Shown here: positions 1-10,020 of the stretch, piece by piece
How positions within the stretch are numbered: the stretch's first letter is position 1
How the letters are laid out: every line of letters starts with the position of its first letter
IMG/VR virus record: IMGVR_UViG_2531839448_000002
DNA: 11,023 nt
Source of the DNA: a virus
Taxonomy: Duplodnaviria > Heunggongvirae > Uroviricota > Caudoviricetes
Direction: 5' to 3' (one strand)
Translations under genes and position numbers: made by a program
The notes under the pieces: model-generated
Database searches by the model: none
The model's input: only the letters and a program-made list of their open reading frames with translations
Told to the model about the DNA's origin: nothing

Positions 1-974
1 AGGCTGCCAGCGATCCGATGGTGGACGGCATTCTGCTGGATATGGACACACCGGGCGGGATGGTGGCGGGAGCATTTGACTGTGCTGACATCATCGCCCG
101 TGTGCGAGACATAAAACCGGTATGGGCGCTGGCCAACGACATGAACTGCAGTGCAGGTCAGCTGCTTGCCAGCGCCGCCTCCCGGCGTCTGGTCACGCAG
201 ACCGCCCGGACAGGCTCCATCGGCGTCATGATGGCTCACAGTAATTACGGTGCTGCGCTGGAGAAACAGGGCGTGGAAATCACGCTGATTTACAGCGGCA
301 GCCATAAGGTGGATGGCAACCCCTACAGCCATCTACCGGATGATGTCCGGGAAACACTGCAGTCCCGGATGGATGCAACCCGCCGGATGTTTGCACAGAA
401 GGTGTCGGCATATACCGGCCTGTCCGTGCAGGCTGTGCTGGATACCGAGGCTGCAGTGTACAGCGGTCAGGAGGCCATTGATGCCGGACTGGCTGATGAA
501 CTTGTGAACAGTACCGATGCGATCACCGTCATGCGTGATGCACTGGATGCACGTAAATCCCGTCTCTCAGGAGGGCGAATGACCAAAGAGACTCAATCAA
601 CAACTGTTTCAGCCACTGCTTTGCAGGCTGACGTTACTGGCGTAGTGCAAGCGACGGAGGGCGAGAACGCCAGCGCTGCGCAGCCGGACGTGAACGCGCA
701 GATCACCGCAGCGGTTGCGGCAGAAAACAGTCGCATTATGGGGATCCTCAACTGTGAGGAGGCTCACGGACGCGAAGAACAGGCATGCGTGCTGGCCGAA
801 ACCCCCGGTATGACCGTGGAAACGGCCCGCCGTATTCTGGCCGCAGCACCACAGAGTGCACAGGCGCGCAGTGACACTGCGCTGGATCGTCTGATGCAGG
901 GGGCACCGGCACCGCTGGCTGCAGGTAACCCGGCATCTGATGCCGTTAACGATTTGCTGAACACACCAGTGTAA
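1..974 (+). CDS. C: Prohead protease / minor capsid protein C (lambda gpC-like, S49/ClpP-like peptidase), 5'-truncated by the window edge
   Basis: Open frame runs from the window edge (codons in phase from nt 3) to TAA at 972-974. The translation (...VDGILLDMDTPGGMVAGAFDCADIIARVRD...TARTGSIGVMMAHSNYGAALEKQGVEITLIYSGSHKVDGNPY...) is recognisable as the C-terminal two-thirds of lambda gpC. The ATG at 18 is internal, not the true start. Confidence 0.9.
   Translation, partial: AASDPMVDGILLDMDTPGGMVAGAFDCADIIARVRDIKPVWALANDMNCSAGQLLASAASRRLVTQTARTGSIGVMMAHSNYGAALEKQGVEITLIYSGSHKVDGNPYSHLPDDVRETLQSRMDATRRMFAQKVSAYTGLSVQAVLDTEAAVYSGQEAIDAGLADELVNSTDAITVMRDALDARKSRLSGGRMTKETQSTTVSATALQADVTGVVQATEGENASAAQPDVNAQITAAVAAENSRIMGILNCEEAHGREEQACVLAETPGMTVETARRILAAAPQSAQARSDTALDRLMQGAPAPLAAGNPASDAVNDLLNTPV
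579..974 (+). CDS. nu3: Capsid scaffolding protein Nu3, nested in-frame in the 3' end of C
   Basis: Internal ATG at 579 preceded by a strong SD (caGGAGGGcgaATG) gives a 131-aa product (MTKETQSTTVSAT...NDLLNTPV) sharing frame and stop with C, matching the known lambda C/Nu3 nested arrangement and the Nu3 length. Confidence 0.8.
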   Translation: MTKETQSTTVSATALQADVTGVVQATEGENASAAQPDVNAQITAAVAAENSRIMGILNCEEAHGREEQACVLAETPGMTVETARRILAAAPQSAQARSDTALDRLMQGAPAPLAAGNPASDAVNDLLNTPV

Positions 975-983
975 GGGATGTTT

Positions 984-1316
984 ATGACGAGCAAAGAAAC
1001 CTTTACCCATTACCAGCCGCTGGGCAACAGTGACCCGGCTCATACCGCAACCGCGCCCGGCGGGTTGAGTGCGAAAGCGCCTGCAATGACCCCGCTGATG
1101 CTGGACACCTCCACCCGTAAGCTGGTTGCGTGGGATGGCACCACCGACGGTGCTGCCGTTGGCATTCTTGCAGTTGCTGCTGACCAGACCAGCACCACAC
1201 TGACGTTCTACAAGTCCGGCACGTTCCGTTATGAGGATGTGCTCTGGCCGGAGGCTGCCAGCGACGAGACGAAAAAACGGACCGCGTTTGCCGGAACGGC
1301 AATCAGCATCGTTTAA
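984..1316 (+). CDS. D: Head decoration protein D (gpD-like)
   Basis: The 110-aa product [27 protein letters not shown]...AGTAISIV is near-identical to my recollection of lambda gpD. SD aaggg lies 6 nt upstream of the ATG at 984. The ORF-track start at 978 adds two residues (MF) and is probably not used. Confidence 0.93.
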
Positions 1317-3789: not shown

Positions 3790-4181
3790 AACATACTGAA
3801 CTCCGTGCAGCCGTACTGGATGCACTGGAGAAGCATGACACCGGGGCGACGTTTTTTGATGGTCGCCCCGCTGTTTTTGATGAGGCGGATTTTCCGGCAG
3901 TTGCCGTTTATCTCACCGGCGCTGAATACACGGGCGAAGAGCTGGACAGCGATACCTGGCAGGCGGAGCTGCATATCGAAGTTTTCCTGCCTGCTCAGGT
4001 GCCGGATTCAGAGCTGGATGCGTGGATGGAGTCCCGGATTTATCCGGTGATGAGCGATATCCCGGCACTGTCAGATTTGATCACCAGTATGGTGGCCAGC
4101 GGCTATGACTACCGGCGCGACGATGATGCGGGCCTGTGGAGTTCAGCCGATCTGACTTATGTCATTACCTATGAAATGTGA
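3786..4181 (+). CDS. U: Tail tube terminator protein U (gpU-like)
   Basis: The 131-aa product MKHTELRAAVLDALEKHDTGATFFDGRPAVFDEADFPAVAVYLTG...LTYVITYEM matches lambda gpU. Stop TGA is at 4179-4181. Confidence 0.92.
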   Translation: MKHTELRAAVLDALEKHDTGATFFDGRPAVFDEADFPAVAVYLTGAEYTGEELDSDTWQAELHIEVFLPAQVPDSELDAWMESRIYPVMSDIPALSDLITSMVASGYDYRRDDDAGLWSSADLTYVITYEM

Positions 4182-4184
4182 GGA

Positions 4185-4193
4185 CGCTATGCC
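4185..4193. repeat. Left copy of the 9-bp IS10 target-site duplication (CGCTATGCC)
   Basis: An identical 9-mer, CGCTATGCC, directly abuts both ends of the IS element (4185-4193 and 5524-5532). It contains the original SD-proximal ATG of V. Confidence 0.85.
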
Positions 4194-4222
4194 CTGATGA
4201 ATCCCCTAATGATTTTTATCAA

Positions 4223-4273
4223 AATCATTAAGTTAAGGTAGATACACATCTTGTCATATGATCAAATGGTTTC
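4223..4273 (+). promoter_or_regulatory. IS10 outside-end regulatory region: putative IHF site and pIN promoter with Dam GATC site
   Basis: AATCATTAAGTTA resembles an IHF consensus at the position expected in IS10 (about bp 30-42). GATC at 4260-4263 falls where the Dam-regulated -10 region of the transposase promoter pIN lies in IS10. Assignments are by position from recalled IS10 organisation, not measured. Confidence 0.4.
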
Positions 4274-4308
4274 GCCAAAAATCAATAATCAGACAACAAA
4301 ATGTGCGA
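4239..4308 (-). ncRNA. Putative IS10 antisense RNA-OUT, complementary to the transposase mRNA 5' end
   Basis: Placed by positional homology only: in IS10, RNA-OUT is transcribed outward from about bp 115 to bp 46 and overlaps the transposase start codon (here ATG 4301). Boundaries are approximate. Confidence 0.4.
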
Positions 4309-5510
4309 ACTCGATATTTTACACGACTCTCTTTACCAATTCTGCCCCGAATTACACTTAAAACGACTCAACAGCTTAACGTTGGCTTGCCACGCCTTAC
4401 TTGACTGTAAAACTCTCACTCTTACCGAACTTGGCCGTAACCTGCCAACCAAAGCGAGAACAAAACATAACATCAAACGAATCGACCGATTGTTAGGTAA
4501 TCGTCACCTCCACAAAGAGCGACTCGCTGTATACCGTTGGCATGCTAGCTTTATCTGTTCGGGCAATACGATGCCCATTGTACTTGTTGACTGGTCTGAT
4601 ATCCGTGAGCAAAAACGGCTTATGGTATTGCGAGCTTCAGTCGCACTACACGGTCGTTCTGTTACTCTTTATGAGAAAGCGTTCCCGCTTTCAGAGCAAT
4701 GTTCAAAGAAAGCTCATGACCAATTTCTAGCCGACCTTGCGAGCATTCTACCGAGTAACACCACACCGCTCATTGTCAGTGATGCTGGCTTTAAAGTGCC
4801 ATGGTATAAATCCGTTGAGAAGCTGGGTTGGTACTGGTTAAGTCGAGTAAGAGGAAAAGTACAATATGCAGACCTAGGAGCGGAAAACTGGAAACCTATC
4901 AGCAACTTACATGATATGTCATCTAGTCACTCAAAGACTTTAGGCTATAAGAGGCTGACTAAAAGCAATCCAATCTCATGCCAAATTCTATTGTATAAAT
5001 CTCGCTCTAAAGGCCGAAAAAATCAGCGCTCGACACGGACTCATTGTCACCACCCGTCACCTAAAATCTACTCAGCGTCGGCAAAGGAGCCATGGATTCT
5101 AGCAACTAACTTACCTGTTGAAATTCGAACACCCAAACAACTTGTTAATATCTATTCGAAGCGAATGCAGATTGAAGAAACCTTACCGAGACTTGAAAAG
5201 TCCTGCCTACGGACTAGGCCTACGCCATAGCCGAACGAGCAGCTCAGAGCGTTTTGATATCATGCTGCTAATCGCCCTGATGCTTCAACTAACATGTTGG
5301 CTTGCGGGCGTTCATGCTCAGAAACAAGGTTGGGACAAGCACTTCCAGGCTAACACAGTCAGAAATCGAAACGTACTCTCAACAGTTCGCTTAGGCATGG
5401 AAGTTTTGCGGCATTCTGGCTACACAATAACAAGGGAAGACTCACTCGTGGCTGCAACCCTGCTTACTCAAAATCTATTCACACATGGTTACGTTTTGGG
5501 GAAATTATGA
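4301..5510 (+). pseudogene. IS10 transposase, frameshifted (disrupted single ORF)
   Basis: The expected continuous ~402-aa ORF is split into 4301-5230 (309 aa, ending ...QIEETLPRLEKSCLRTRPTP) and a +1-phase ORF 5118-5510 (...KPYRDLKSPAYGLGLRHSRTSSSERFDIML...). Both parts read as transposase on either side of about 5181-5190 (ccttaccgag). The element is 1 bp longer than canonical IS10, consistent with a single-base insertion. Confidence 0.8.
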
Positions 5511-5523
5511 GGGGATCTCTCAG

Positions 5524-5532
5524 CGCTATGCC
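5524..5532. repeat. Right copy of the 9-bp IS10 target-site duplication (CGCTATGCC)
   Basis: Identical to 4185-4193. It contains the functional V start codon at 5528. Confidence 0.85.
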
Positions 5533-6268
5533 TGTACCAAATCCTGTAATGCCGGTGAAAGGTGCCGGGACCACCCTGTGGGTTTATAAGGGGAGCGGTG
5601 ACCCTTATGCGAATCCGCTTTCAGACGTTGACTGGTCGCGTCTGGCAAAAGTTAAAGACCTGACGCCCGGCGAACTGACCGCTGAGTCCTATGACGACAG
5701 CTATCTCGATGATGAAGATGCAGACTGGACTGCGACCGGGCAGGGGCAGAAATCTGCCGGAGATACCAGCTTCACGCTGGCGTGGATGCCCGGAGAGCAG
5801 GGGCAGCAGGCGCTGCTGGCGTGGTTTAATGAAGGCGATACCCGTGCCTATAAAATCCGCTTCCCGAACGGCACGGTCGATGTGTTCCGTGGCTGGGTCA
5901 GCAGTATCGGTAAGGCGGTGACGGCGAAGGAAGTGATCACCCGCACGGTGAAAGTCACCAATGTGGGACGTCCGTCGATGGCAGAAGATCGCAGCACGGT
6001 AACAGCGGCAACCGGTATGACCGTGACGCCAGCCAGCGCTTCCGTAGTGAAAGGGAAGAGCACCACGCTGACCGTGGCATTCCAGCCGGAAGGCGCAACC
6101 GACAAGAGCTTCCGTGCGGTGTCAGCGGATAAAACAAAAGCCACCGTGTCGGTCAGTGGTATGACCATCACCGTGAATGGCGTTGCTGCAGGTAAGGTCA
6201 ACATTCCGGTCGTATCCGGTAATGGTGAGTTTGCTGCGGTTGCAGAAATCACCGTCACCGCCAGTTAA
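5528..6268 (+). CDS. V: Major tail tube protein V (gpV-like) with C-terminal Ig-like domain
   Basis: The 246-aa product [36 protein letters not shown]...AEITVTAS matches lambda gpV. The C-terminal ~80 aa ([25 protein letters not shown]...) is the Ig-like (Big_2-type) domain. The ORF-track start at 5507 lies inside IS10 (see findings). Confidence 0.9.
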
Positions 6269-6283
6269 TCCGGAGAGTCAGAG

Positions 6284-6706
6284 ATGTTCCTGAAAACCGA
6301 ATCATTTGAACATAACGGCGTGACCGTCACGCTTTCTGAACTGTCAGCCCTGCAGCGTATTGAGCATCTCGCCCTGATGAAACGGCAGGCAGAACAGGCG
6401 GAGTCAGACAGCAACCGGCAGGTTACTGTGGAAGACGTCATCAGAACCGGTGCTTGTGTGGTGGCGATGTCCCTGTGGCATAACCATCCGAAGAAGACGC
6501 AGATGCCGTCCATGAATGAAGCCGTTAAACAGATTGAGCAGGAAGTGCTTACCACCTGGCCTACAGAGGCAATTTCTCATGCTGAAAACGTGGTGTACCG
6601 GCTGTCCGGTATGTATGAGTTTGTGGTGAATGATGCCCCTGAACAGGCAGAGGACGCTGGGCCTGCAGAGCCTGTTTCTGCGGGAAAGTGTTCGACGGTG
6701 AGCTGA
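6284..6706 (+). CDS. G: Tail assembly chaperone G (gpG-like)
   Basis: The 140-aa product MFLKTESFEHNGVTVTLSELSALQRIEHLALMKRQAEQ... matches lambda gpG. SD GGAGAG lies upstream. Confidence 0.9.
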   Translation: MFLKTESFEHNGVTVTLSELSALQRIEHLALMKRQAEQAESDSNRQVTVEDVIRTGACVVAMSLWHNHPKKTQMPSMNEAVKQIEQEVLTTWPTEAISHAENVVYRLSGMYEFVVNDAPEQAEDAGPAEPVSAGKCSTVS

Positions 6707-7122
6707 GTTTTGCCCTGAAACTGGCGCGCGAGATGGGGCGACCCGACTGGCGTGCCATGCTTGCCGGGATGTCATCCACGGAGTATGCCGACTGGCACCG
6801 CTTTTACAGTACCCATTATTTTCATGATGTTCTGCTGGATATGCACTTTTCCGGGCTGACGTACACCGTGCTCAGCCTGTTTTTCAGCGATCCGGATATG
6901 CATCCGCTGGATTTCAGTCTGCTGAACCGGCGTGAGGCTGACGAAGAGCCTGAAGATGATGTGCTGATGCAGAAAGCGGCAGGGCTTGCCGGAGGCGTTC
7001 GTTTTGGCCCGGACGGGAATGAAGTTATCCCCGCTTCCCCGGATGTGGCGGACATGACGGAGGATGACGTAATGCTGATGACAGTATCAGAAGGGATCGC
7101 AGGAGGAGTCCGGTATGGCTGA
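6284..7122 (+). CDS. GT: Tail assembly chaperone GT, made by -1 programmed ribosomal frameshift from G into T
   Basis: Slippery heptamer G GGA AAG is in the G zero frame at 6682-6688. The -1 frame continues as ORF 6688-7122 (MFDGELSFALKLAREMGRPDWRAMLAGMSS...), which has no SD or independent start context and matches the lambda T segment. Confidence 0.8.
6682..6688 (+). other. -1 programmed ribosomal frameshift slippery site (G GGA AAG) for G/GT
   Basis: The X XXY YYZ heptamer GGGAAAG is in phase with G codons (gcG GGA AAG tgt), 6 codons before the G stop, and the T reading frame opens in the -1 phase. Confidence 0.8.
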
Positions 7123-9694
7123 ACCGGTAGGCGATCTGGTCGTTGATTTAAGTCTGGATGCGGCCAGATTTGACGAGCAGATGGCCAGAGTCAGGCGTCA
7201 TTTTTCCGGTACGGAAACTGATGCGAAAAAAACAGCGGCAGTCGTTGAACAGTCGCTGAGCCGACAGGCGCTGGCTGCACAGAAAGCGGGGATTTCCGTC
7301 GGGCAGTATAAAGCCGCCATGCGTATGCTGCCTGCACAGTTCACCGACGTGGCCACGCAGCTTGCAGGCGGGCAAAGTCCGTGGCTGATCCTGCTGCAAC
7401 AGGGTGGTCAGGTTAAGGACTCCTTCGGCGGGATGATCCCCATGTTCAGGGGGCTTGCCGGTGCGATCACCCTGCCGATGGTGGGGGCCACCTCGCTGGC
7501 GGTGGCGACCGGTGCGCTGGCGTATGCCTGGTATCAGGGCAACTCAACCCTGTCCGATTTCAACAAAAGGCTGGTCCTTTCCGGCAATCAGGCGGGACTG
7601 ACGGCAGATCGTATTCTGGCCCTGTCCAGAGCCGGGCAGGCGGCAGGGCTGACGTTTAACCAGACCAGCGAGTCACTGACGGCGCTGGTGAATGCCGGTG
7701 TGCGTGGTGGTGAGCAGTTTGAGGCGATCAGCCAGAGTGTGGCGCGTTTCTCCTCTGCATCCGGCGTGGAGGTGGACAAGGTCGCTGAAGCCTTCGGGAA
7801 GCTGACCACAGACCCGACGTCGGGACTGACAGCGATGGCACGTCAGTTCCATAACGTGACGGCGGAGCAGATTGCGTATGTTGCTCAGTTGCAGCGTTCC
7901 GGAGATGAAGCCGGGGCATTGCAGGCGGCGAACGAGGCCGCAACGAAAGGGTTTGATGACCAGACCCGCCGCCTGAAAGAGAACATGGGCACGCTGGAGA
8001 CCTGGGCAGACAGGACAGCACGGGCATTCAAATCCATGTGGGATTCGGTGCTGGATATTGGTCGCCCGGACACTGCCCAGGGAATGCTGGAGAAAGCAGA
8101 AAAGGCTTTTGATGAGGCGGACAAAAAATGGCAGTGGTATCAGAGCCGGAGCCACCGGCGCGGTAAAACCTCAGCATTTCTTGCCAATCTCCGGGGAGCA
8201 TGGGAGGACAGAGCGAATGCGCAACTTGGGCTTTCAGCCGCCACGTTGCAGGCCGATCTTGAAAAGGCCAGAGAGATGGCAGCAAAGGACTGGGCCGAGT
8301 CTGAGGCATCACGGCTGAAATATACCGAAGAGGCGCAGAAGGCTTACGAACGCCTGCAGACGCCGCTGGAGAAATATACCGCCCGTCAGGAAGAACTGAA
8401 CAAGGCACTGAAAGACGGGAAAATCCTGCAGGCAGATTACAACACGCTGATGGCGGCGGCGAAAAAGGATTATGAAGCGACGCTGAAAAAGCCGAAACAG
8501 TCCGGCGTGAAAGTGTCTGCGGGCGATCGTCAGGAAGACAGTGCTCATGCTGCCCTGCTGACGCTTCAGGCTGAACTCCGGACGCTGGAGAAGCATGCCG
8601 GAGCAAATGAGAAAATCAGCCAGCAGCGCCGGGATTTGTGGAAGGCGGAGAGTCAGTTCGCGGTACTGGAGGAGGCGGCGCAACGTCGCCAGCTGTCCGC
8701 ACAGGAGAAATCCCTGCTGGCGCATAAAGATGAGACGCTGGAGTACAAACGCCAGCTGGCTGCACTTGGCGACAAGGTTACGTATCAGGAGCGCCTGAAC
8801 GCGCTGGCGCAGCAGGCGGATAAATTCGCACAGCAGCAACGGGCAAAACGGGCCGCCATTGATGCGAAAAGCCGGGGGCTGACTGACCGGCAGGCAGCGC
8901 GGGAAGCCACGGAACAGCGCCTGAAGGAACAGTATGGCGATAATCCGCTGGCGCTGAATAACGTCATGTCAGAGCAGAAAAAGACCTGGGCGGCTGAAGA
9001 CCAGCTTCGCGGGAGCTGGATGGCAGGCCTGACGTCCGGCTGGAGTGAGTGGGAAGAGAGCGCCACGGACAGTATGTCGCAGGTAAAAAGTGCAGCCACG
9101 CAGACCTTTGATGGTATTGCACAGAATATGGCGGCGATGCTGACCGGCAGTGAGCAGAACTGGCGCAGCTTCACCCGTTCCGTGCTGTCCATGATGACAG
9201 AAATTCTGCTTAAGCAGGCAATGGTGGGGATTGTCGGGAGTATCGGCAGCGCCATTGGCGGGGCTGTTGGTGGCGGCGCATCCGCGTCAGGCGGTACAGC
9301 CATTCAGGCCGCTGCGGCGAAATTCCATTTTGCAACCGGAGGATTTACGGGAACCGGCGGCAAATATGAGCCAGCGGGGATTGTTCACCGTGGTGAATTT
9401 GTCTTCACAAAGGAGGCAACCAGCCGGATTGGCGTGGGGAATCTCTACCGGCTGATGCGCGGCTATGCCACCGGTGGTTATGTCGGTACACCGGGCAGTC
9501 TGGCTGACAGCCGATCGCAGGCGTCCGGGACGTTTGAGCAGAATAACCATGTGGTGATTAACAACGACGGCACGAACGGGCAGATAGGTCCGGCTGCTCT
9601 GAAGGCGGTGTATGACATGGCCCGCAAGGGTGCCCGTGATGAAATTCAGACACAGATGCGTGATGGTGGACTGTTCTCCGGAGGTGGACGATGA
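7115..9694 (+). CDS. H: Tail tape measure protein H (gpH-like), 859 aa
   Basis: MAEPVGDLVVDLSLDAARFDEQMARVRRHF... has a long Ala/Gln/Lys-rich predicted helical middle and a Gly-rich C-terminal region (GIVGSIGSAIGGAVGGGASASGGTAIQ...), matching lambda gpH. It overlaps the T stop and the M start (ATGA). Confidence 0.93.
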   Translation: MAEPVGDLVVDLSLDAARFDEQMARVRRHFSGTETDAKKTAAVVEQSLSRQALAAQKAGISVGQYKAAMRMLPAQFTDVATQLAGGQSPWLILLQQGGQVKDSFGGMIPMFRGLAGAITLPMVGATSLAVATGALAYAWYQGNSTLSDFNKRLVLSGNQAGLTADRILALSRAGQAAGLTFNQTSESLTALVNAGVRGGEQFEAISQSVARFSSASGVEVDKVAEAFGKLTTDPTSGLTAMARQFHNVTAEQIAYVAQLQRSGDEAGALQAANEAATKGFDDQTRRLKENMGTLETWADRTARAFKSMWDSVLDIGRPDTAQGMLEKAEKAFDEADKKWQWYQSRSHRRGKTSAFLANLRGAWEDRANAQLGLSAATLQADLEKAREMAAKDWAESEASRLKYTEEAQKAYERLQTPLEKYTARQEELNKALKDGKILQADYNTLMAAAKKDYEATLKKPKQSGVKVSAGDRQEDSAHAALLTLQAELRTLEKHAGANEKISQQRRDLWKAESQFAVLEEAAQRRQLSAQEKSLLAHKDETLEYKRQLAALGDKVTYQERLNALAQQADKFAQQQRAKRAAIDAKSRGLTDRQAAREATEQRLKEQYGDNPLALNNVMSEQKKTWAAEDQLRGSWMAGLTSGWSEWEESATDSMSQVKSAATQTFDGIAQNMAAMLTGSEQNWRSFTRSVLSMMTEILLKQAMVGIVGSIGSAIGGAVGGGASASGGTAIQAAAAKFHFATGGFTGTGGKYEPAGIVHRGEFVFTKEATSRIGVGNLYRLMRGYATGGYVGTPGSLADSRSQASGTFEQNNHVVINNDGTNGQIGPAALKAVYDMARKGARDEIQTQMRDGGLFSGGGR

Positions 9695-10020
9695 AAACCT
9701 TCCGCTGGAAAGTGAAACCCGGTATGGATGTGGCTTCGGCCCCTTCTGTAAGAAAGGTGCGCTTTGGTGATGGCTATTCCCAGCGAGCGCCTGCCGGGCT
9801 GAATGCCAACCTGAAAACGTACAGCGTGACGCTTTCTGTCCCCCGTTGGGAGGCCACGGCGCTGGAGTCGTTTCTGGAAGAGCACGGGGGCTGGAAAGCC
9901 TTTCTGTGGACGCCGCCTTATGAGTGGCGGCAGATAAAGGTGACTTGCGCAAAATGGTCGTCGCGGGTCAGTATGCTGCGTGTTGAGTTCAGCGCAGAGT
10001 TTGAACAGGTGGTGAACTGA
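9691..10020 (+). CDS. M: Minor tail (tail tip) protein M (gpM-like)
   Basis: The 109-aa product MKTFRWKVKPGMDVASAPSVRKVRFGDGYSQRAPAGLNANLKTYSV... matches lambda gpM. Its stop overlaps the L start. Confidence 0.92.
   Translation: MKTFRWKVKPGMDVASAPSVRKVRFGDGYSQRAPAGLNANLKTYSVTLSVPRWEATALESFLEEHGGWKAFLWTPPYEWRQIKVTCAKWSSRVSMLRVEFSAEFEQVVN

Follow-up and report, generated by a model that had tools for sequence, protein, structure and literature searches.

A mosaic segment of the tape measure gene H in a lambda-like prophage and its possible link to DNA injection

The stretch of viral DNA analyzed here (11,023 nucleotides, IMG/VR record IMGVR_UViG_2531839448_000002; hereafter the window) carries much of the late operon of a lambda-like prophage, including gene H, which encodes the lambda-type tail tape measure protein (TMP). 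We find that the window H is an almost pure lambda backbone with alternative alleles at amino acids 318-398 and at amino acids 189-204. The larger of these divergent segments, called block B, is almost certainly an allelic cassette that is exchanged by homologous recombination among lambdoid prophages. The same cassette is present in phage PhiR68.2 (written PhiR68_2 in sequence records), and a correlation observed in this one phage raises the idea that block B is an injection-specificity cassette that alters the dealings of the TMP with the inner membrane, a proposal that we consider evenly poised between right and wrong. The features on which the first part of the argument depends are as follows.

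7115 to 9694, plus strand: gene H, lambda-type TMP of 859 amino acids (open reading frame and translation).
8065 to 8308, plus strand: block B, the window-type or PhiR68.2-type cassette, with a core at 8090 to 8308 (alignment and maximum chi-square).
Within 8046 to 8064: left junction of block B (mismatch positions).
8309 to 8352, plus strand: right recombination junction interval, identical to lambda (mismatch positions).
8141 to 8200, plus strand: neighborhood of the six-codon length difference.

The reference for the comparison was lambda H from J02459 (853 amino acids), and the MAFFT nucleotide alignment of the two genes has 2,580 columns with 190 differences in all. Block B (8065-8308) takes up 244 of these columns and exhibits 48.7% identity over aligned bases, whereas the rest of H outside both divergent segments has 37 differences in 2,287 nucleotides (98.4% identity), mostly at third codon positions. 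A maximum chi-square scan with two breakpoints returned 8090-8308 with a chi-square value of 899, and 200 permutations reached at most 28. When the H product was compared with lambda gpH by BLASTP, 788 of 861 positions were identical and the differences clustered at window amino acids 323-396. In a homology search, the two genes were 97.3% identical in nucleotide sequence across 92% of the length.

The edges of the block can be placed closely. On its left side, five synonymous differences at 8065-8077 precede the first amino acid change (residue 323), and although the block spans amino acids 318-398, the amino acid changes are confined to residues 323-396. The right junction is sharp, with the final difference at 8308 and the next one at 8353. 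Within the block, an 18-nucleotide gap in lambda makes the window segment six codons longer. MAFFT positions this gap at 8183-8200, while hhalign instead proposes an eight-residue insertion at about amino acids 342-349 (8138-8161), followed by a two-residue deletion further on.

These results bear on a first-pass annotation of the window that was made from the sequence alone. It had described a gene near-identical to lambda H save for one discrete block, with a return to close identity on both flanks, and this description holds: the alignment reveals a discrete block with breakpoints rather than uniform divergence, and lambda carries another segment at that place. The annotated coordinates (8075-8310) agree with those of the aligned block within about 10 nucleotides, the peptide quoted is the same as the translation of the open reading frame, and the estimate of about six additional residues fits the lengths of 859 and 853 amino acids.

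A second, smaller mosaic patch, absent from that annotation, is located upstream of block B.

7678 to 7726, plus strand: patch A, amino acids 189-204.

Patch A differs from lambda at 19 of 49 nucleotides, which causes eight amino acid changes and involves no insertion or deletion, and block B lies 360 nucleotides away from it. Lambda carries the lambda version of both segments (A-lambda, B-lambda) and the window carries the alternative version of both (A-w, B-w). In addition, PhiR47_2 and 61 database cluster representatives are (A-lambda, B-w), and ev099 is (A-w, B-lambda). Every combination of patch A and block B is found, and the presence of all four gametes across 360 nucleotides therefore requires recombination. 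The first-pass annotation had interpreted the block as a recombinational mosaic patch, and its discrete breakpoints, the commonness of both alleles, and the independent assortment with patch A all favor this interpretation. In this respect, block B is an ordinary example of lambdoid mosaicism.

Both classes of the block are indeed abundant. Among 5,426 complete Escherichia coli genomes, the window-type block is present in 2,031 (37%) and the lambda-type block in 3,030 (56%). There are 61 phage records with the window-type block, which fall into identity bands of 100%, 96-98%, 89.5%, and about 77%, and 61 with the lambda-type block, which are 96-100% identical. Phages Kati, PhiR68_2, PhiR34_1, and phiSTEC1575-Stx2k carry a block with 100% DNA identity to that of the window, and a database cluster of 859-residue TMPs that are about 96% identical to the window TMP has 7,781 members. 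With the insertion described below removed, window positions 3900-8400 (U to early H) match prophages in E. coli CV839-06, ETEC1731, and ETEC1747 at 100% identity, which covers H only as far as position 8400, where the query ended.

Judged by their sequence profiles, the two block classes are ancient alleles of one segment, or deep homologues, because hhalign matches the window-type and lambda-type profiles with a probability of 93% (E = 2.6e-7, 38% identity over 58 columns). These same values rule out a non-homologous replacement by unrelated DNA. A search of representatives clustered at 50% returned mostly fragments and distant TMPs, and in the distant relatives P0126 and P0147, with overall identities of 58% and 41%, the block is closer to the lambda type than to the window type. 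The window-type block is native to a lineage in which the whole of H is 15-25% diverged, and this lineage includes PhiR5_1, the PhiR12 phages, Stx2a-converting phages, and O157 prophages.

When the window-type alleles of the window and PhiR5_1 are compared, 40 of 65 differences affect the third base of an H-frame codon. This excess indicates purifying selection and a block that is coding in the H frame. Furthermore, the motif AFDEADKKWQWYQSRS-RRGKT is kept across window-type alleles that are only 77% identical. The codon-position pattern also speaks to the notion that the block conceals some other element, such as an alternative-frame open reading frame (8058-8318, 86 amino acids, TTG start), an antisense open reading frame, an RNA, or a promoter. 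The alternative-frame candidate coincides almost exactly with the block, but the third positions of the H frame on which substitutions fall are second positions of the alternative frame, and we rejected it on the basis of this pattern among window-type alleles. A search against Rfam gave no match in H, no promoter-like site or Chi site is present in or near the block, and terminator-like sites there occur at chance level. The GC content of the block (0.57) is like that of neighboring sequence, and there is no compositional anomaly. It is scarcely credible that a hidden element accounts for block B.

Some records that carry the window-type block have an interrupted H gene. In the Stx2a-converting phage Stx2a_JNE122398 (L004), a one-nucleotide deletion in the block, equivalent to window position 8161, shifts the frame of H and leads to a later in-frame stop, and thus the gene resembles a pseudogene or a sequencing error. 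The same match (query 37-256, 76.8% identity) occurs in 32 other Stx2a records, with the frameshift seen in the one record that was sampled. Elsewhere, H is annotated as two coding sequences in the plaque-forming phages PhiR5_1 (L005, 714-3286) and PhiR49_1 (L017, 2057-4617), with a frameshift close to the C-terminus in one phage and around codon 100 in the second. Such splits are probably sequencing errors in the records.

The region that includes block B was also modeled with AlphaFold2 as a monomer of amino acids 280-460, from which we take secondary structure only (predicted template modeling score 0.42). The mean predicted local distance difference test value is 75, and it is 80-90 over most of the block. 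Helices are predicted at amino acids 281-314, 321-346, 353-433, and 439-458, with loops at amino acids 315-320 and 347-352. The second of these loops is the following feature.

8153 to 8170, plus strand: predicted loop HRRGKT, amino acids 347-352 (AlphaFold2).

In this model, the six additional residues sit at or beside the predicted helix-loop junction at amino acids 347-352. Their possible consequence for the tail deserves attention because the first-pass annotation had predicted that a longer ruler yields a longer tail. TMP length does determine tail length, each residue contributing about 0.15 nm (0.145-0.15 nm in PMC5099701, citing Katsura & Hendrix 1984), and the window TMP is six residues longer than lambda gpH (859 versus 853). 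However, the lambda tube is a stack of 32 gpV rings, each adding about 42 Å (4.2 nm) (PMC10721106), and six residues amount to about 0.9 nm, or about 0.2 of one ring. A change the size of a ring, for which about 28 residues are needed at 0.15 nm per residue, is not reached. Moreover, the insertion or deletion is at or near a predicted loop, and TMPs with the same block have 853, 855, 857, 859, or 866 amino acids, such that total length is not tied to the block. This variation arises from separate insertions or deletions near amino acids ~461, ~521, and ~715, so that lengths spread over about 13 residues are tolerated in the TMP family independently of the block. Tail-length tuning is thus a very unlikely role for the cassette, the predicted lengthening of the tail lacks support as a meaningful effect, and the six-residue length difference is probably incidental.

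Two further observations concern TMP length. Among close relatives of the window TMP, the commonest length is 866 amino acids (P0004-P0118), which results from a seven-residue insertion near amino acid 521. Longer TMP forms (903 and 953 amino acids) carry the lambda-type block.

A more attractive role for block B is suggested by published findings on DNA entry. TurboID-ManZ labels gpH during lambda DNA injection, and SNIPE is a membrane nuclease associated with ManYZ (Saxton et al., Nature 2026, PMC13190303). Of the temperate phages in the lambda-TMP clade tested in that study, PhiR68.2 was the sole exception, in that it can do without ManYZ and SNIPE inhibits it only modestly. The departure of its TMP from the rest of the clade was reported to lie in 'amino acids 300 to 400', which overlaps A304V (PMC13190303), the H mutation with which a 'generalist' lambda can enter cells that lack manYZ (Gupta et al., as used by Saxton et al. 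2026). Furthermore, cryo-electron tomography has revealed gpH* as a hexameric trans-envelope channel whose models are split at residue 319/320 (PMC12617516), and this split coincides with the left edge of block B. The residue affected in the generalist mutant is also close by.

8024 to 8026, plus strand: codon A304, whose residue is unchanged in the window.

A304 is 14 codons upstream of the block DNA boundary (amino acid 318) and 19 codons upstream of the first amino acid change (amino acid 323). Of the other panel phages whose TMPs belong to the lambda clade, seven were checked (R11_1, R26_1, R29_1, R42_1, R49_1, R63_1, and R63_2), and each has the lambda-type block.

These findings lead to our preferred model, in which a swap of the cassette would act on the injection step and not on the ruler. 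The segment lies where the second helical section of gpH* begins, and ejected gpH* forms a hexameric channel that spans the periplasm and nears the inner-membrane mannose permease ManYZ. The window-type cassette would then alter the interaction of the TMP with the inner membrane, and dependence on ManYZ would be lowered or lost. With less ManYZ dependence, a phage would be less exposed to ManYZ-based defenses, the SNIPE nuclease among them, and its exposure to DicB-type inhibition of ManYZ (PMC6832061) would probably be altered too.

Several points weigh against assigning this role to block B. The functional link comes from one phage, PhiR68.2, and is a correlation; the ManYZ/SNIPE phenotype is reported for that phage only, and the tail operon of the window prophage is interrupted by IS10. 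In the panel, the types of block B and patch A go together without exception, the seven ManYZ-dependent lambda-clade phages that were compared being lambda-type for both, and therefore the two segments are inseparable there. Indeed, among lambda-clade phages of the SNIPE panel, the window-type version of patch A is found in PhiR68.2 only. A comparison of U, V, G, T, and H also revealed that V R71, U E79, and H I76 of PhiR68.2 occur neither in lambda nor in any of the ManYZ-dependent panel phages compared. Foremost among these is the change in gene V, which occupies the following positions.

5528 to 6268: gene V of the window (469-1209 in the PhiR68_2 record, L012).

Residue 71 of V is R in PhiR68.2 and G in lambda, the window, Kati, and the seven ManYZ-dependent panel phages. 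Kati and PhiR34_1 share the TMP of PhiR68.2 except for I76. Classical mutations that bypass pel (ManYZ) have been mapped not only to H but also to V (Scandella & Arber 1976, as cited in later work). Because such mutations can map to V, the V G71R change is a possible confounder for crediting the TMP block. At these three sites the window encodes G71 in V, A79 in U, and F76 in H, and so lacks V R71, U E79, and H I76 of PhiR68.2. If V G71R is the cause in PhiR68.2, then the phage of the window would stay ManYZ-dependent.

The possible confounder in V also lends some weight to a neutral explanation, which is that the block is a permissive spacer in a helical ruler whose alleles are functionally equivalent and are shuffled by routine recombination between co-resident lambdoid prophages; V G71R could instead account for the PhiR68.2 phenotype. 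Recombination partners are plentiful, given that up to six copies of the block are present in one E. coli genome, and H carries several more small patches and insertions or deletions. The region is also predicted to be a simple helix-loop-helix. However, the window-type class is under purifying selection, as judged by its dominant third-position changes and by the retention of AFDEADKKWQWYQSRS-RRGKT at 77% identity, and two deeply diverged classes persist at high frequency with no intermediates. In addition, the block adjoins A304, the only mapped ManYZ-bypass residue in H. On balance, we regard neutral mosaicism as rather unlikely, though it has a real share of the probability.

Another conceivable partner for the block is the pair of tail assembly chaperones, G and GT. 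Tail assembly chaperones coat the TMP during assembly (mentioned in PMC5099701), and block B might be a chaperone-binding segment that is matched to the G/T allele. The G protein is variable at 29 sites among the panel phages. However, G and T of PhiR68.2 have the same protein sequences as in lambda even though its block is window-type, and the window has the same block with a different G protein. The occurrence of the same block with different G proteins therefore argues that it is not linked to the chaperone allele. We rejected co-variation of the block with G and T on these grounds, and there is only a very slight chance that co-adaptation with the chaperones explains the two classes.

Returning to the proposed role in injection, it is tempting to extend it. 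Perhaps the 74-codon window-type cassette is a natural, portable inner-membrane entry module that frees lambda-type phages from ManYZ, and with it from ManYZ-anchored defenses like SNIPE and from DicB-type inhibition of the permease, and perhaps injection-stage immunity maintains it in E. coli prophages as a balanced dimorphism with the lambda-type cassette (37%/56% of complete genomes). We offer this broader proposal tentatively and lean somewhat against it.

The block itself has been published for PhiR68.2: its 'aa 300-400' divergence and a possible link to ManYZ independence are in print, the allele is common in databases, and the window holds no new kind of element. The current analysis adds the exact junctions, the deep homology of the two classes, the class frequencies, natural recombinants, and the V confounder. 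The cassette of the PhiR68.2 type is discrete and very common, its junctions are defined, and it is homologous to the lambda segment. How gpH uses ManYZ for DNA passage across the inner membrane has been a question since the pel mutants of the 1970s, and it is topical again now that the SNIPE nuclease has been found to lie in wait at ManYZ. Natural recombinants for mapping the determinant exist, both PhiR47_2-like (A-lambda, B-w) and ev099-like (A-w, B-lambda), and V G71R, which is unique to PhiR68.2, may confound the published correlation. Awareness of the recombinants and of the V confounder should ease the mapping of the determinant.

The remaining features of the window concern the identity of H, its surroundings, and the insertion upstream of it.

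C/nu3 region through L: late (head-tail) genes of a lambda-like prophage, in the same order as in lambda J02459 and with DNA about 98% identical, IS10 aside.
6688 to 7122: gene T, neighbor of H.
9691 to 10020: gene M, neighbor of H.
4194 to 5523, plus strand: insertion sequence IS10 between U and V, 1,330 base pairs, 99.9% identical to IS10R of plasmid R100.
4185 to 4193 and 5524 to 5532: direct repeats flanking IS10, a 9-base-pair target duplication CGCTATGCC that contains the ATG of V.
4239 to 4308, minus strand: RNA-OUT (Rfam).

By its domains, its operon position, and its helical ruler, the H product belongs to the lambda-type TMP (gpH) family. It matches the Pfam families TMP_2 (PF06791, E = 1.6e-70) and Tape_meas_lam_C (PF09718, E = 5.9e-21), and its match to TIGR01541 scores 445 bits relative to a cut-off of 105. 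The gene follows the G/T frameshift chaperone pair and precedes M and L, which fits the gpH family, and the hydrophobic N- and C-terminal segments and the Gly-rich C-terminal region of its product are identical or nearly so to those of lambda. At the 3′ end of H (9455-9694), the last ~80 codons are variable among the close relatives PhiR47_2, 2B8, and ev243, which exhibit 13-22 differences per 60 nucleotides there; the window is the same as lambda in this part. A protein of 1,398 amino acids (P0014) matches the window TMP at 97% identity along 98% of the query and extends into tail-tip or fibre-type domains (PF24421, PF24489, PF09327, and PF12421) that are typical of downstream proteins. This arrangement suggests that P0014 is a deletion-generated fusion or an annotation artefact.

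The sole difference between the window IS10 and IS10R is one additional A at 5185, because of which the transposase is divided between open reading frames 4301-5230 and 5118-5510. The insertion separates V from its original ribosome-binding site, and it should be polar on V-G-T-H. No insertion sequence was present at the U-V site among the complete E. coli genomes of the collection.

The window TMP can finally be compared with four known systems. The closest is the PhiR68_2 TMP (PV340576; Brenes & Laub 2025, Saxton et al. 2026). Both proteins have 859 amino acids, they are identical over amino acids 170-594 (including patch A and the whole block), and their block DNA is 100% identical. Seven residues differ, which in the window are F76, R152, I167, A169, A595, T640, and L796, and the tail operon of the window, unlike that of PhiR68_2, has IS10 between U and V. 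Lambda gpH (J02459, 853 amino acids) shares with the window the gene position, the Pfam and TIGRFAM domains, the hydrophobic segments, and A304. However, amino acids 323-396 of the window are a distant homologue of the lambda segment that is six residues longer, with about 30-38% amino acid identity. The diverged lambdoid TMP lineage has the same block class as the window at equal length and about 77% nucleotide identity, with mostly synonymous differences and with the KKWQWYQSRS-RRGKT motif retained. The block is native to that lineage, whose divergence of 15-25% runs across the whole gene, whereas in the window it is a patch. Lastly, the lambda generalist mutant H A304V involves the same part of gpH (amino acids 300-400) and, if block B does act in injection, the same step, namely inner-membrane passage. 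A304V is a single laboratory-evolved substitution, whereas the window keeps A304 and has a natural replacement of about 74 codons.

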